NCBI RefSeq assembly: GCF_988242995.1
Contig: NZ_OZ547043.1
Direction: 5' to 3' (one strand)
Length of the DNA stretch: 64,000 nucleotides
Shown here: positions 15,260 through 34,492 of the stretch, one piece after another
Position numbering within the stretch: position 1 is the first letter of the stretch
How the letters are laid out: every line of letters begins with the position of its first letter
Notes under the pieces: model-generated
Database searches by the model: none
What the model was told of the DNA's origin: nothing
What the model saw: only the letters and a program-made list of their open reading frames with translations
Made by a program: the position numbers and the translations under genes

Positions 15260-15284
15260 TTCGCACCTCATCATCTGCACGCAA

Positions 15285-15335
15285 TATACTATAGGGGGGT
15301 ATGCTATATGTCAATGCATACCCCCCTATAGTATA
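15285..15335. promoter_or_regulatory. frmRAB operator/promoter inverted repeat with G6/C6 tracts
   Basis: tatactataggggggtatgc - tatatgtcaat - gcatacccccctatagtata, a near-perfect 20-bp dyad just upstream of the frmR start. Confidence 0.7.
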
Positions 15336-15443
15336 TAACACTGGAGAATAAAATTTATCCGGTGAATGTAGTCGGATAACAAAAAGTAAAGAGGGGCCTA
15401 ATCGACAGGGAAGGCCGCCCCGGATAGCGGGCGGCAGAAGCAA

Positions 15444-16217
15444 TCAGAATTTCCAGGTCAGATGGGCTGCAAATTGCAGACCGTTATAATCATCAGTTGG
15501 GGTGTCGTACCACACTTTACCTGCCGTCAGCCCGAGATTAAGTTGCTCAGTCAGCGGTTGAATACGTTGCAAACTGACGCTCTTCATGCTGCCGTAGCGT
15601 GTTTCTGGCGTCCAGTCATAGGTGTAAGCGCCTGTTCCGCGGCTTAGCCATAGTTGCGTATAACCAGTGCCGCGCGGGTCATTCAGACGCACGGAAATCA
15701 TATTGCTGTAACTACCACCTGCATCGCTGGAGTCATAATGGGTATAGCGGTAGCTGGAGATCACCGGGCCAGTATAGAGTGATACGCCGCCTTGCCAGGC
15801 ATCGACTTCGACATCATCGTAATATTTCGTGTAGCGATAACCGGTCGTGAAAAGCGTTTTTGGCAACAGTGCCAGGTTAATATCCTGACGAAAATCCTGG
15901 CGGGCAAAGACCGGCGTATTATCCGCAAAGGCAATACCCGTTCGGGTTGTCAGCCAGTTATTCCATTTATACCAGACCGCACCCTGACCGCGAGTGGCAT
16001 TGAAATGTTCAGTTTCATAATCACGACGCCCCTGGGAAAGATTAAAAAGCAGCGTTGCGTTTTCAACTTTCGCCACCAGTTCAGCATACGCTAAATTACG
16101 GTTGCCATGATCGCCAGAATAATCGGTAAAATCGTAGCCCGCGGTAATGGAAGTTAACCCGGCATAAGCGGGCAATGCGCTAAAAATTGCTGCCGCTAAT
16201 AACGTCCGTTTTATCAT
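15444..16217 (-). CDS. yaiO: outer-membrane beta-barrel protein YaiO
   Basis: 257-aa ORF with signal peptide MIKRTLLAAAIFSALPAYA and C-terminal ...HLTWKF. Confidence 0.88.
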   Translation of the reverse strand: MIKRTLLAAAIFSALPAYAGLTSITAGYDFTDYSGDHGNRNLAYAELVAKVENATLLFNLSQGRRDYETEHFNATRGQGAVWYKWNNWLTTRTGIAFADNTPVFARQDFRQDINLALLPKTLFTTGYRYTKYYDDVEVDAWQGGVSLYTGPVISSYRYTHYDSSDAGGSYSNMISVRLNDPRGTGYTQLWLSRGTGAYTYDWTPETRYGSMKSVSLQRIQPLTEQLNLGLTAGKVWYDTPTDDYNGLQFAAHLTWKF

Positions 16218-16218
16218 T

Positions 16219-16929
16219 TTAATCTCCTGTACGGATAAGTTCTTGTCGGAGTGAATAAGTTCCGGTAGGTAAATTACGTTCTACAATCACGCGCGGGCCA
16301 AGTTGCGTGTTCGGGGAAATAATTCGCCCAGGCAAAATAATAACTTGTACGCCAAGGCGTGAACGCTGCCCGATATAACAACCTAATTTATCGCATTCGG
16401 TAGCGATAATTCCCTCTGGAGTTCGAACAGACACGGGCTGTTGATCCAGACGATGATTACTGGTACGTACTTGTGCGCCCAAATATGCCTGGTTTGCAAC
16501 TACCGAGTCGGCGATAAAGCATTGCGGACCAATCGTTGCTTCCGCTTCAATAACCGCATTTTTAATTTCGGTGGCAAAACCAATTTTTACGCCATTGCTG
16601 ATTATTGTGCCAGGACGAATAAACGCATAATTACCTATCAGGCAGTTTGCGCCAATCACTACCGGACCCTGAATAACGGCACCGTGACAAATACGGGTAT
16701 TCGCGCCGATAACAACTTCACCTGCAGTTTCATCAATAATTACCTGGTCTGCAATCTGAATATTTTTCTCTTTAACATTAAGCTTCAGAAAGTTTTTCAG
16801 TTCCTGTGACAGAAGGTTGGGAATAAGCGGTTGACGCTTCCACCAGTGCGGAATAGCGGGTGGGTTTGTCGCGCTGAGGTTCGCGTCCAGTAAAAAAGGC
16901 AATAAGTCCATAAATAATCCAGATGGCAT
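16219..16929 (-). CDS. yaiX: hexapeptide-repeat (left-handed beta-helix) acyl/acetyltransferase YaiX, intact; start uncertain
   Basis: 236-aa ORF rich in [LIV]-G-x-x-x-x hexapeptide repeats (VIGANTRI, VIGANCLIGNYAFI); first 152 nt overlap the yaiP 3' end, no internal Met, so true start is unresolved. Confidence 0.7.
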   Translation of the reverse strand: MPSGLFMDLLPFLLDANLSATNPPAIPHWWKRQPLIPNLLSQELKNFLKLNVKEKNIQIADQVIIDETAGEVVIGANTRICHGAVIQGPVVIGANCLIGNYAFIRPGTIISNGVKIGFATEIKNAVIEAEATIGPQCFIADSVVANQAYLGAQVRTSNHRLDQQPVSVRTPEGIIATECDKLGCYIGQRSRLGVQVIILPGRIISPNTQLGPRVIVERNLPTGTYSLRQELIRTGD

Positions 16930-17974
16930 AAGCTAATAATACATACACAACGGAAAGCGGCGCTAAAGGCACCAACAACCAGCAACGATGAAACCAGGCG
17001 CTAAAAGCACCAATAACACAAACTACGCCGACCCAGATAAGCGGAAACATTGCCAACACCACACCATGCGGCCCGGTGGTGATGAATTCATTAAACCAGG
17101 TAGTGAGATAAATCCCAACGCCATAAAGCACAACCAACAGCATAGGAAATATACTGAAGATACCGAAGCGGCTAAATAAAAGCCTTTTATGCAGGCGCAT
17201 ACAGACCGCGTAGCCCACAATCCAACGCCGCCAGCGACGCCATTCCTCACGCGGGCTGTTGCATTCCTGTGGGTATACGATGCAGCGATTCGCCTGCCGA
17301 ATACGATAGCCGTTTGCCACCAATGTCCAGGTGAGATCAAGGTCTTCGACTTTAGTACGATCAGAGAAACCGAACTTACGCAATACATCAGTACGGAACA
17401 TCCCGCAGGCACCGCTGATAATAAACGGTGCGCCGCCCAGGAGCTGCTGTAGCGTGCGCTTCATAACAATCATCGGCAACTTTACGGTCGCGCGGATGTG
17501 CGGTAACAGACCCGCGCCTTTCAACGCAGTAGAGGGAATGCCGCCTACGGCATCAGCACCGCGCTCTATTTCTGCAAGCATATAGCCCATTCCGTCTTGA
17601 TCGGGCGGAACATAGGTGTCGGCATCACTTAAAAAAACCTGGTCGCAGGTGGCGTAATTGAGGCCATTCATCAGCGCACCACCTTTACCGGTATTTTTTT
17701 GCGTGACGGCAACAAAGCGGTCGCCCCATTTGCGTTTGACTTCCGCCATGACCGCTTCGGTATTGTCCGTGGAGCCGTCGTTTACGCAAATTACCCGGCA
17801 AAAATAAGGATTACGCAGCAGATTATCCAGTGACTGTGCCAGACACGGGCCTTCGTTATAAGCAGGTATAATGGCGTCAATACAGCCTTTCTTTTGACTG
17901 GGTTTACGTTTTAGCGTACTTAAAAACCATAGCAACATTGCTATGGACATACAGATAAATATCCAGGTTTTCAT
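16778..17974 (-). CDS. yaiP: family-2 glycosyltransferase, membrane-associated
   Basis: 398-aa ORF; N-terminal TM, GT-A fold with DGSTD and SDADT (DxD-like) motifs, C-terminal TM helices. Confidence 0.88.
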   Translation of the reverse strand: MKTWIFICMSIAMLLWFLSTLKRKPSQKKGCIDAIIPAYNEGPCLAQSLDNLLRNPYFCRVICVNDGSTDNTEAVMAEVKRKWGDRFVAVTQKNTGKGGALMNGLNYATCDQVFLSDADTYVPPDQDGMGYMLAEIERGADAVGGIPSTALKGAGLLPHIRATVKLPMIVMKRTLQQLLGGAPFIISGACGMFRTDVLRKFGFSDRTKVEDLDLTWTLVANGYRIRQANRCIVYPQECNSPREEWRRWRRWIVGYAVCMRLHKRLLFSRFGIFSIFPMLLVVLYGVGIYLTTWFNEFITTGPHGVVLAMFPLIWVGVVCVIGAFSAWFHRCWLLVPLAPLSVVYVLLAYAIWIIYGLIAFFTGREPQRDKPTRYSALVEASTAYSQPSVTGTEKLSEA

Positions 17975-17983
17975 GCAATTTGC

Positions 17984-18655
17984 TCAAAGAATCATTTTAT
18001 GAATTACAAAGCCTTCACCCAGATCGCTATTGACCTGTTGCCCGCGAAATTGTGCAACTGCACGCAGGCGATCATGACGCATATAATCGCGTCGTTCCTG
18101 GCTTTTATGTTTTTTTAATGCAGCAAGTTTGACTGTGAAATATTCTTCTTTAACGGATTCAAAAACCTGAGGCATAAATGAAAGCCAGGTGCTTGGGGTT
18201 TCGTAGCCGAGAATTTGTGGAATAGTTCGGCAGGCAACCATTGAAGCTTGATAAACAGCAAGATGATCCTGATGGCGGTCGGCATCATGCATGGTATATA
18301 CCCGCATGATTTCAACATCAGAAGGAATTTGATTTTTAATGATGTCTTCCAGGGCGGAAATCATATCATTGAGCTGCAAATGCGCGCGGGTGTCAGCAAA
18401 ATTAAGATGAATAGTTTGGTGGCACCCTAATATCTTTAGGGCGTTGCGCGATTCTTCATGGCGATCGATTATTCCATCTGTGCCAGAGTTGCCGGTAGTC
18501 ATCACCACGGCTGCGATATAAATTCCTTTTTGCGCAAGACGAGCAAGCGACGCGCCACAGCCCAATTCTATATCATCAGGATGTGCGCCAATAGCAAGGA
18601 TACCCTTTCTTTTATTTGCCGAAGAAAGGATGGCTGAATCTAAAACCTTATCCAC
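17984..18655 (-). CDS. yaiS: LmbE/PIG-L family deacetylase
   Basis: 223-aa ORF with N-terminal AHPDDIELG motif typical of LmbE-like N-deacetylases; recorded K-12 length may be shorter. Confidence 0.8.
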   Translation of the reverse strand: MDKVLDSAILSSANKRKGILAIGAHPDDIELGCGASLARLAQKGIYIAAVVMTTGNSGTDGIIDRHEESRNALKILGCHQTIHLNFADTRAHLQLNDMISALEDIIKNQIPSDVEIMRVYTMHDADRHQDHLAVYQASMVACRTIPQILGYETPSTWLSFMPQVFESVKEEYFTVKLAALKKHKSQERRDYMRHDRLRAVAQFRGQQVNSDLGEGFVIHKMIL

Positions 18656-19263
18656 TTAATGACACTCCATTTTATTTATTATACTACAAGCACAACGATG
18701 CCCGCAGAGACGTAATCTCTGGCACAGACAGATGCTAATTTTTAAGTGTTAAAAATTACTGATAGCTGAAAAATAAGGGGCTTTCAGGTACGGGGATACG
18801 GCTGCGTAATCTTTTATGTAGTTCATATGTTAAGTGTTTGTGTGTTTGGTTTGTATAGTTATTTTGTTTTATATATTGTATTTAGATGTGATTTAGTTTG
18901 TCAATTAATTACATATTAAAAATATGTTCTAGGCACAAATATGGATTATATACATTATGTGAATGTATTATGTGGTTGATTGAGAATGATACAGTTATAT
19001 ATGCAATGTGAATATAATGATTTCATTATATGTATTGCTGTTAATAAAATAAAAGACATTATGTTCTGCTTGTTTATGCATTAATAAAAATGAAGTGCAG
19101 TAACTTACTGAATTGTCAGAGTGGGTGTAATTGCATATTTAATCTTTCCTTTGCCGCTTTTTTGCTAAGAATAAAATCATCTGTGCGATAACGACTAATT
19201 CTTTTAATGAATGTTTTTATTCCTGAATACTGCTCCTATAACAAGACAGGGGAGCAGACAATC

Positions 19264-20226
19264 ATGGCAATTTCATCGCGTAACACACTTCTTGCCGCAC
19301 TGGCATTCATCGCTTTTCAGGCACAGGCGGTGAACGTCACCGTGGCCTATCAAACCTCCGCTGAACCGGCGAAAGTGGCTCAGGCTGATAACACCTTTGC
19401 TAAAGAGAGCGGGGCGACGGTGGACTGGCGTAAGTTTGACAGCGGAGCCAGCATCGTGCGGGCGCTGGCTTCAGGCGATGTCCAAATCGGTAACCTCGGT
19501 TCCAGCCCATTAGCGGTGGCAGCCAGCCAACAGGTGCCGATTGAAGTCTTCTTACTGGCGTCAAAACTGGGTAACTCCGAAGCGCTGGTGGTAAAGAAAA
19601 CTATCAGCAAACCGGAAGATCTCATTGGCAAACGCATCGCCGTACCGTTTATCTCCACCACCCACTACAGCCTGCTGGCGGCGCTGAAACACTGGGGTAT
19701 AAAACCCGGACAAGTGGAGATAGTGAACCTGCAGCCACCCGCGATTATCGCCGCATGGCAACGGGGAGACATTGATGGTGCTTATGTCTGGGCACCGGCG
19801 GTTAACGCCCTGGAAAAAGACGGCAAGGTGCTGACCGATTCTGAACAGGTCGGGCAGTGGGGCGCGCCGACGCTGGATGTCTGGGTAGTGCGCAAAGATT
19901 TTGCCGAGAAACATCCTGAGGTCGTGAAAGCGTTCGCTAAAAGCGCCATCGATGCTCAGCAACCGTACATTGCTAACCCAGACGCGTGGCTGAAACAGCC
20001 TGAAAACATCAGCAAACTGGCGCGGTTAAGCGGCGTGCCTGAAGGTGACGTTCCGGGGCTGGTGAAGGGGAATACCTATCTGACGCCGCAGCAGCAAACG
20101 GCAGAACTGACCGGATCGGTGAACAAAGCGATCATCGACACCGCGCAGTTTTTGAAAGAGCAGGGCAAAGTCCCGGCTGTAGCGAACGATTACAGCCAGT
20201 ACGTGACCTCGCGCTTCGTGCAATAA
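19264..20226 (+). CDS. tauA: taurine ABC transporter periplasmic binding protein
   Basis: ORF 19207..20226; ATG at 19264 gives MAISSRNTLLAALAFIAFQAQA (signal peptide), 320 aa. Confidence 0.9.
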   Translation: MAISSRNTLLAALAFIAFQAQAVNVTVAYQTSAEPAKVAQADNTFAKESGATVDWRKFDSGASIVRALASGDVQIGNLGSSPLAVAASQQVPIEVFLLASKLGNSEALVVKKTISKPEDLIGKRIAVPFISTTHYSLLAALKHWGIKPGQVEIVNLQPPAIIAAWQRGDIDGAYVWAPAVNALEKDGKVLTDSEQVGQWGAPTLDVWVVRKDFAEKHPEVVKAFAKSAIDAQQPYIANPDAWLKQPENISKLARLSGVPEGDVPGLVKGNTYLTPQQQTAELTGSVNKAIIDTAQFLKEQGKVPAVANDYSQYVTSRFVQ

Positions 20227-23692: not shown

Positions 23693-24215
23693 GGTCTGCC
23701 TGATGTTTGTGGAATCGAGGGGCATAGTATACCTGAAGCAGGGTAGGGATGTTTTACGAAAGTTGTCGCGATGTTGACAAGAAGAGAATGGAAGAGAGGC
23801 CAGGACATCTTTGTAATAGAAATAGCAATAATTTCATATTCACTGAAAATATTTTTAATCTTTATTTATAGTTATTGGTTATTATTTTTTGGAGTTTGGT
23901 TGCGCTGCTACAAATTGAATAATTAAAACTTTGTTGTATATTCATAGGATATTTATCTGGTTTGTGTTTGTGATATTTATGATGCATATGTTTCAAAAAT
24001 AACATTATCTGCAACATATTGAAATATGGTGTTTTTATCAATTCGATGCGTGTTTTTCTCCATAAATTACATATGTCCACATTCGGACTTAGGGGAAAGA
24101 ATAATTGAACCATTCCTCTATAACGCCGCATAATCGTCAACGCGAAACATAATATGTTTTCTATGCATTGATAATTGATGGATCAACTTATTACGTCCCT
24201 GAGGAGGGATGACAA

Positions 24216-27176
<2,961 letters not shown>

Positions 27177-33669: not shown

Positions 33670-34131
33670 CTTAAAAACCTATCCCGTCTAACACAAAGTG
33701 CATACATTACCACGACAAAACGGGGGATTCGCGGCCTTCTGACAGAATGTTGCAATCTTCTGCTGACAAAGCGTGCAACGTACTGGTGAAGAAAGTGCGT
33801 TATCTCAATGATGTGCGCAAGATCACAAAAATGATGAACGGGAAGCTAATTTATTCCTGGCTTGTATGGCCATGCAGTGAGTTTTTTTCTCTTAATTATA
33901 AGTTAACGAAGAAAATATATTTCATAACTTTTATTTATAATAAAGGTTGATAATTAAAAGCCTATATTTTGTGTGGGTAATTATTAAAATAAGAGAAACG
34001 TTTCGCTGGTAATCAAACAAAAAATATTTGCGCAAAGTATTTCCTTTGTCATAAAAATAATACTTCCAGACACTATGAAGTTGTGAAACATAATGTTAAC
34101 TTCTCCATACTTTGGATAAGGAAATACAGAC

Positions 34132-34392
34132 ATGAAAAATCTCATTGCTGAGTTGTTATTTAAGCTTGCCCAAAAAGAAGAAGAGTCGAAAGAACTGTGC
34201 GCGCAGGTAGAAGCTTTGGAGATTATCGTCACTGCAATGCTTCGCAATATGGCGCAAAATGACCAACAAAGGTTGATTGATCAGGTAGAGGGGGCGCTGT
34301 ACGAGGTAAAGCCCGATGCCAGCATTCCTGACGACGATACGGAGCTGCTGCGCAATTATGTAAAGAAGTTATTGAAGCATCCTCGTCAGTAA
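34132..34392 (+). CDS. iraP: anti-adaptor protein IraP (RpoS stabiliser)
   Basis: 86-aa [25 protein letters not shown]... Confidence 0.9.
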
Positions 34393-34412
34393 AAAGTTAA
34401 TCTTTTCAACAG

Positions 34413-34430
34413 CTGTCATAAAGCTGTCAC
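34413..34430 (+). promoter_or_regulatory. Pho box (PhoB binding site) of phoA promoter
   Basis: ctgtcataaagctgtcac, two 7-bp direct repeats CTGTCA(T/C) spaced 11 bp, ~60 nt upstream of the phoA GTG. Confidence 0.85.
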
Positions 34431-34492
34431 GGCCCAGACTTATAGTCGCTTTGTTTTTATTTTTTAATGTATTTGTACATGGAGAAAATAAA

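Follow-up and report, generated by a model that had tools for sequence, protein, structure and literature searches.

The divergent genes yaiS and tauA are separated by an unusually long stretch of AT-rich DNA, and the question raised by this locus is which of the two neighbors that DNA serves. A first-pass annotation described it as an AT-rich regulatory island upstream of tauA, with many short repeated motifs and perhaps a hidden small RNA or short ORF. In the 64-kb stretch of DNA that was analyzed as a whole (the window), the intergenic region occupies 18656-19263, exactly as first drawn, and extends over 608 bp from the GTG start codon of yaiS on the minus strand (18655..18653) to the ATG of tauA at 19264. 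The spacer is an E. coli sequence, 99.9% identical to that of strain 2012C-4221, and K-12-type genomes match it with 88.5% identity over 721 bp. In the RefSeq annotation of these 99.9%- and 88.5%-identical genomes, the flanking genes are a PIG-L deacetylase gene (yaiS) and tauA. The GC content of the spacer is 30.2% versus 51.4% for the whole window, it drops to 23-25% between about 18800 and 19100, and no 609-bp stretch anywhere in the 64 kb has a lower value. Thus, the gap is as long and as AT-rich as had been noted, its flanking genes were correctly named, and it is indeed regulatory, with promoters for both genes.

As a control region for two divergent genes, the spacer is composed of three parts: a tauA promoter module, an AT-rich core, and a yaiS control region. 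It is a real and ordinary feature that has already been described, its K-12 counterpart having been listed among the H-NS-bound promoter islands and among the RNA polymerase SELEX sites (PMC3661553, PMC3946193). After the spacer, the lowest GC contents over 609 bp of the window are found at 57145-57753 (32% GC), 23813-24421 (34%), and 33883-34491 (35%). The second of these stretches precedes a large autotransporter ORF (24216-27164) whose O157:H7 counterpart is annotated as ehaB, and all three may be further H-NS-type regions.

Promoters of yaiS and tauA

Conservation within the spacer was read against E. fergusonii, whose identity at third codon positions, only 54-58% in yaiS and tauA, makes it distant enough for footprinting. 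The greater part of the spacer shows 42-55% identity in this comparison. Two blocks stand out from it, 18837-18933 with the yaiS promoter (78-90%) and 19124-19263 with the tauA promoter (75-85%), and the same two are also the most conserved blocks among seven Escherichia alleles. The ~190 bp between them (18934-19123), which include a rightward promoter assigned by SELEX, drift at a neutral-like rate. Judged from these alignments, the spacer appears to be unconstrained outside the two promoters, with its composition but not its sequence maintained.

The sole strongly conserved element within the core is a promoter directed at yaiS. This distal promoter (18875..18904, minus strand) has the -35 element TTGACA (18904..18899) and the -10 element TACAAT (18880..18875) at a spacing of 18 bp, and with 11 of 12 consensus matches it outranks every other sigma-70-like site of the spacer. 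The same two hexamers are present in E. coli, E. whittamii, and E. fergusonii. They are also those tabulated for K-12 by Shimada et al., whose genomic SELEX with RpoD holoenzyme placed a site with the 'HNS' flag in the yaiS/tauA spacer, with the hexamers TTGACA-18-TACAAT toward yaiS and TTGAGA-16-TACAAT toward tauA (PMC3946193). Minor sigma factors were the subject of a later SELEX study, which has a peak in the same spacer, too. If transcription starts at the distal promoter, yaiS would have a leader of ~210 nt (18656..18868, minus strand). This predicted leader contains a Shine-Dalgarno sequence GGAG (18668..18665) and a perfect TATAAT (18683..18678) without a -35 partner, and it is poorly conserved beyond its first ~45 nt.

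Within the variable stretch of the presumed leader lies an inverted repeat, CAGAGA-N5-TCTCTG (18705..18721, minus strand), which is invariant among the E. coli and E. whittamii alleles. At the same position E. fergusonii has a 7-bp stem, TTGCAGA...TCTGCAA, with a different loop. The leader was also considered as a structured RNA, and this was rejected on a fold that is not unusual (z = -1.09). A perfect 10-bp palindrome, TAATTTTTAA-gtg-TTAAAAATTA, is found at 18736-18758; the closer E. coli alleles (GPEC1035, SSGNw1, and IHE3034) have it as well, the K-12-type and E. whittamii alleles do not, and it is probably incidental.

The yaiS ORF itself (17984-18655, minus strand) is intact and encodes a PIG-L deacetylase in 223 codons. 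RefSeq annotates yaiS as 185 aa in K-12-type genomes and as a partial pseudogene in several strains including 2012C-4221, in which yaiP is called frameshifted. Antisense to the 3′ part of yaiS, and outside the spacer, lies ykiC (17999-18118, plus strand), a validated gene for a 39-aa small protein (VanOrsdel et al., 2018, PMC6001520). The ykiC of the window differs from that of K-12 by one substitution, Ser15 to Pro.

On the other side, tauA has its sulfate-starvation promoter, Cbl-activated and of the sigma-70 type, in the last ~125 bp in front of the gene. From a 15-species alignment and an 80-locus survey, the module (19137..19263, plus strand) was found to contain the following motifs in all genera: TTTGCCG (19150-19156), a T-run with CTAA (19158-19168), TAATTCTTTTA (19196-19206), AATACTG (19226-19232), the candidate -10 TATAAC (19237-19242), and the Shine-Dalgarno sequence GGGGAG (19249-19254). 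The skeleton made up of the T-run with CTAA, TAATTC(C/T)TTTA, AATACTG, (C/T)ATAAC, and the Shine-Dalgarno sequence is in register with the tauA ATG in nearly all 80 loci; that is, a conserved module stands at a fixed distance upstream of tauA across the Enterobacteriaceae sample. The assignment of individual motifs as the Cbl site, the -35, and the -10 is a putative one. The CysB/Cbl control of tauABCD under sulfate starvation in K-12, which the first-pass annotation had invoked, is well documented (RegulonDB as summarized in PMC3680503; PMC11495319).

Between -125 and -39 of tauA, this promoter exists in two forms. One form is linked to yaiS and is carried by the window, K-12, IHE3034, E. whittamii, and E. 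fergusonii; the other is carried by cassette-free E. coli, O157, E. albertii, Citrobacter, Klebsiella, and Enterobacter. Over this interval K-12 and the window are 98% identical and thus have the same yaiS-linked allele. The two forms are 48-52% identical to each other in ungapped and ~65% in gapped alignment, and the tauA coding sequence is 94-95% identical between the allele types within E. coli. Divergence of the form without yaiS parallels that of the tauA coding sequence (72-84% identity across genera vs. 81-85%). The switch between the forms falls at 19225|19226, 38 bp before the tauA ATG. This pattern suggests that when the cassette was acquired, the upstream half of this promoter, from about -125 to -39, was exchanged for an allele that keeps only the motif skeleton. 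Buttiauxella or Cedecea, hinted at by the ungapped comparison, was rejected as the donor of the yaiS-linked allele, which in gapped alignment has the same identity (~65%) to every type, and neither this comparison nor the 80-locus survey turned up a nearer donor type.

The yaiS-yaiP-yaiX-yaiO cassette and its AT-rich tract

The genes yaiS-yaiP-yaiX-yaiO (15444-18655, minus strand, in the window) always occur as one four-gene unit, which is found in at least nine chromosomal contexts in Enterobacteriaceae with no adjacent mobility genes. They encode a PIG-L deacetylase, a GT2 glycosyltransferase, a hexapeptide acyltransferase, and the YaiO outer-membrane barrel, and the cassette looks like a cryptic surface-polysaccharide module to judge from these products. 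Its breakpoint was located by pairwise BLAST of the window against the loci of H105, O157, NCTC11023, K-12, and IHE3034. The cassette-linked segment (15363..19225) contains all four cassette genes and, except for the last 38 bp, the whole spacer with its AT-rich DNA and the upstream half of the tauA promoter. In cassette-free E. coli H105 the segment is replaced by 164 bp, and frmR abuts tauA. Among 5426 complete E. coli genomes, 4362 (~80%) have the yaiS-linked segment and 1027 (~19%) the ancestral one.

To survey other species, 80 species representatives were fetched through TauA, and E. fergusonii was fetched separately. E. whittamii is the only one of the 80 with the cassette and the AT-rich tract upstream of tauA; the E. 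coli representative is without them, and none of the 78 other species representatives has an AT-rich tract at this place. In representatives without the cassette, the GC content of the 600 bp upstream of tauA is 0.40-0.62, and in E. albertii and Escherichia sp. E1V33, frmA (with frmR) is directly beside tauA.

The cassette adjoins tauA in E. coli, E. whittamii, and E. fergusonii. Further copies, located through YaiS homologues, lie at eight other sites or contigs, in Citrobacter, Salmonella, Superficieibacter, a contig labelled Yersinia enterocolitica (on which the upstream neighbor is not seen), and an [Enterobacter] lignolyticus-like contig. At all of the 10 cassette loci compared, which represent nine chromosomal settings, a gene-free spacer of 436-1329 bp is situated upstream of yaiS, and each of these spacers includes a tract of at least 200 bp with 17-27.5% GC within ~250-510 bp of the yaiS start. 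The cassettes at these loci have 36-50% GC and the flanks 41-56%. Neither blastn nor tblastx detected similarity among the upstream spacers of seven cassette lineages, except between E. coli and E. fergusonii. Because every copy of the cassette examined has its own AT-rich tract, the tract accompanies yaiS and not tauA as a compositional feature. From its distribution, the AT-rich tract is best assigned to the yaiS-yaiP-yaiX-yaiO cassette rather than to tauA. Thus, in the description of the spacer as a regulatory island of tauA, the regulatory nature stands and the proximal ~125 bp do serve tauA, but the AT-rich bulk follows the yaiS cassette and is absent from the 78 species representatives and from ~19% of E. 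coli.

Two other origins of the AT-rich DNA were considered and rejected. Descent from a decayed gene was dropped on the outcome of the blastn and tblastx searches just described, and membership of a mobile element on that of a plasmid search with the core, in which the matches were all mislabelled chromosomes.

Several other arrangements are seen around the locus. In O157:H7, the place of the cassette upstream of tauA is taken by uhpC and by genes for a response regulator, a MASE1 histidine kinase, and an ABC transporter. The cassette of Citrobacter is placed between hemB and a regulator/kinase pair whose Pfam domain composition matches that of the O157:H7 pair. Since like regulator/kinase genes are found beside the cassette in one case and instead of it in the other, the tauA/cassette neighborhood is a recurrent swap site. 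An IS1-associated deletion has removed yaiX-yaiS in NCTC11023, with ~200 bp of the original spacer left upstream of tauA, and in strain NDM6 an IS1 is inserted within the spacer. A palindromic element of ~55 bp (15284-15336 in the window), with an inverted self-match of 91% in several strains, is situated between frmR and yaiO, close to the left end of the variable segment.

Composition, repeats, and reading frames of the spacer

The AT-rich core (18810..19109, 23.3% GC) corresponds to a promoter island of K-12 at 383994-384302 (U00096.2), the coordinates having been mapped through sequence alignment. This island, 383994_309, between yaiS (-) and tauA (+), is among 78 K-12 regions with extreme promoter-like density (Panyukov and Ozoline, PMC3661553, Table 1 and Table S1). 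It is bound by H-NS in every ChIP study compiled there and is associated with predicted foreign genes (PMC3661553). As a class, promoter islands bind RNA polymerase with little productive transcription, limited to short oligos, and almost no long RNAs (PMC3661553).

The sequence in the window agrees with this description in its composition. TANNNT occurs at 90/kb in the core vs. 20.6/kb in the window, and TpA makes up 14.7% vs. 4.5%, so that the core is an extended, TpA-rich tract far more AT-rich than its surroundings, as is typical of H-NS-type regions. The interval 18811-19110 contains 10 relaxed sigma-70-like sites, counted as a proxy for PlatProm, which is the maximum of any 300 bp in the 64 kb. 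An association with horizontally acquired genes, another mark of promoter islands, is seen in the presence or absence of yaiOXPS in Escherichia and in its eight other sites. However, promoter-like sites are no commoner in the spacer than in its dinucleotide shuffles, and in the absence of such an excess their density is a property of composition and not a sign of selection for promoters. The H-NS 10-mer TCGATAAATT, with two mismatches allowed, has a single match in the spacer (18901-18910); the high-affinity motif is not enriched there. A full-text literature search found nothing on derepression of yaiS or tauA in hns mutants.

The repeated motifs are explained in the same way. On the plus strand, tgtatt, atatgt, and ttgttt occur in 3, 3, and 2 copies, respectively, versus about one expected from 1000 dinucleotide-preserving shuffles (p = 0.05, 0.06, and 0.25 in the same order, uncorrected). 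Repetition of 6-mers is marginally raised, with 22 hexamers in at least three copies versus 14 +/- 3.7 in shuffles. No 8-mer reaches three copies in the spacer, Tandem Repeats Finder reported no tandem repeats in it, and its direct and inverted repeats are short, two-copy matches typical of AT-rich DNA. The length and composition of the spacer are therefore real, but the hexamer counts are not significant against shuffles, and the 'many short repeated motifs' are accounted for by AT-richness.

It was also suggested that the spacer may conceal an unannotated small RNA or small protein gene, and we regard this as very improbable. The spacer is long and gene-free, it holds several ORFs of 20-40 codons, and the validated small protein YkiC is encoded nearby, antisense to the 3′ end of yaiS. 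In general, AT-rich H-NS regions do start spurious transcripts, which lends the idea some further support. However, a search of the spacer against Rfam at a permissive E-value returned only a spurious lncRNA match (6.9 bits, E = 8.1), and no terminator-like hairpin was found on either strand of it; there is thus neither a known RNA family nor a conserved transcript bounded by a promoter and a terminator, and the sequence of the AT-rich core is not conserved. In at least one diverged allele (K-12, E. whittamii, or E. fergusonii), each ORF but two is interrupted or lacks its start codon. Both exceptions, which the E. coli and E. whittamii alleles have in common, sit inside the conserved yaiS-promoter block, and the larger of them (18827-18919) has no ribosome-binding site and is reduced to 10 codons in E. 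fergusonii; no ORF in the spacer combines a start, a ribosome-binding site, and a frame kept across the diverged alleles. RefSeq annotates no RNA or small protein gene in the spacer, including in K-12-type genomes, and a full-text literature search on yaiS, tauABCD with H-NS, and ykiC/ykiD/ykiE found none reported there. The near absence of long RNAs from promoter islands as a class (PMC3661553) also speaks against a hidden gene.

Readings of the spacer and related systems

The spacer is likely to combine the tauA promoter, of which one half has been replaced, with the H-NS-silenced head of the cassette, in which the yaiS promoter lies. The ~300-bp core (23% GC) and the ~210 bp beside yaiS would together be the upstream region of the horizontally acquired cassette, with a near-consensus, constrained yaiS promoter set within AT-rich sequence. 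On the model of the K-12 allele, H-NS would nucleate in the core and polymerize or spread over it, and it would occlude the yaiS promoter together with the many fortuitous promoter-like sites. The acquired cassette would thereby be kept largely silent, which is the state called xenogeneic silencing or, in K-12, a 'promoter island'. At the right edge, the tauA promoter would act through Cbl on sulfate starvation. The cassette does not seem to have been simply inserted upstream of tauA; it would have overwritten the tauA promoter from about -125 to -39 with a divergent allele. Binding of H-NS and RNA polymerase and the lack of productive transcription are measurements on K-12, whose allele is 88.5% identical, and it is by this likeness that yaiS may be considered silenced by H-NS in the present strain. 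Part of the AT-richness upstream of yaiS could stem from mutation and not from selection.

Two other readings of the AT-rich bulk have to be weighed against this one. In the first, the whole ~600 bp would be an extended, complex tauA promoter, with many CysB/Cbl and other sites across the AT tract that tune induction by sulfate starvation. Footprinting in K-12 by van der Ploeg and co-workers in 1997 reportedly placed several CysB sites well upstream of the Cbl site; if so, these sites could lie in the AT-rich core and would give it some role in tauA control. Such an arrangement would suit the activation of tauABCD by Cbl and its regulation by CysB in K-12 (PMC3680503; PMC11495319), and a rightward promoter-like site within the core (18980..19007, plus strand) corresponds to the one that SELEX gave to tauA in K-12 (TTGAGA-16-TACAAT; PMC3946193). 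However, the -10 of this site reads TGCAAT in the window, with the key A at position 2 lost, and the site is not conserved, its region being 42-45% identical to E. fergusonii within the unconstrained 18934-19123. In ~19% of E. coli and in the 78 other species representatives, nothing but the ~125-bp module is kept in front of tauA, and the AT tract goes with yaiS to sites without tauA. An extended tauA promoter is thus improbable.

In the second, the AT-rich bulk would be a functionless spacer, junction DNA left over from the replacement of gene clusters and AT-rich by mutational bias only. Most of the core and the leader do diverge at a neutral-like rate, the spacers upstream of different cassette lineages are without sequence similarity, and the promoter-like density is explained by composition. 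Drift alone, however, hardly accounts for 10 of 10 loci that keep a long spacer with a tract of 17-27.5% GC, far below both the cassette and the flanks, and H-NS and RNA polymerase are documented to bind the K-12 allele (PMC3661553, PMC3946193). We therefore consider functionless filler unlikely, and prefer the silenced head of an acquired cassette beside a tauA promoter.

A wider form of the preferred reading is offered more tentatively, as possible rather than probable. The cassette may carry a portable AT-rich 'silencer plus promoter' head wherever it has landed, and its arrival at tauA may have overwritten the promoter of that gene in its upstream half; E. coli would then be dimorphic (~80% vs. 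19% of complete genomes) for two tauA regulatory alleles that are ~50% identical, and the textbook Cbl/CysB arrangement of K-12, which adjoins H-NS-bound DNA, would be the derived one. If this is true, the two tauA alleles would differ in the regulation of taurine utilization.

The tauA promoter was dissected in the 1990s. What the present analysis allows is a correct split of the spacer into a part that serves tauA, a part that serves yaiS, and unconstrained AT-rich filler, and its additions, the dimorphism of the tauA promoter alleles and the cassette-borne AT tract, are modest. They carry a caution, in that the model K-12 tauA promoter would be a replaced allele and not the one common to most enterobacteria or to a fifth of E. 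coli. K-12 maps of this promoter, especially those of the far-upstream CysB sites, should be checked before transfer to O157:H7-type or ancestral-type strains.

Several known systems resemble the locus in part. The closest are the K-12 promoter islands of Shavkunov, Panyukov, and Ozoline (PMC3661553), one of which is the same locus, AT-rich, dense in promoter-like sites, and beside horizontally acquired genes. The allele of the window differs from it (88.5% identity over 721 bp), the class property reduces here to composition, and this island also holds one genuinely constrained promoter, that of yaiS. A second relative is the divergent csgDEFG/csgBAC region, an example of the long, AT-rich control regions of surface-structure operons to which nucleoid proteins bind; unlike it, yaiS has, to our knowledge, no known regulator sites. 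The yaiS/tauA spacer is likewise long and divergent, with the HNS flag in the SELEX table (PMC3946193), and it precedes what looks like a surface-polysaccharide operon. In the present case, a tract of 77% A+T, rich in TpA, heads an acquired low-GC cassette, and H-NS is found on the K-12 allele. These features recall the xenogeneic silencing of AT-rich horizontally acquired DNA by H-NS, which is well established from the work of Navarre, Lucchini, Grainger, and others; the difference is that the cargo here is a four-gene chromosomal cassette without mobility genes. Finally, tauABCD and ssuEADCB are the Cbl/CysB-dependent sulfate-starvation promoters described by van der Ploeg et al. in 1997 and 1999. 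The proximal ~125 bp of the spacer are the tauA promoter of this family, and K-12, in which it was characterized, shares the yaiS-linked allele with the window. That characterized allele, however, appears to be the derived one, whereas most Enterobacteriaceae and 19% of E. coli have a form that is only ~50% identical to it between -125 and -39.
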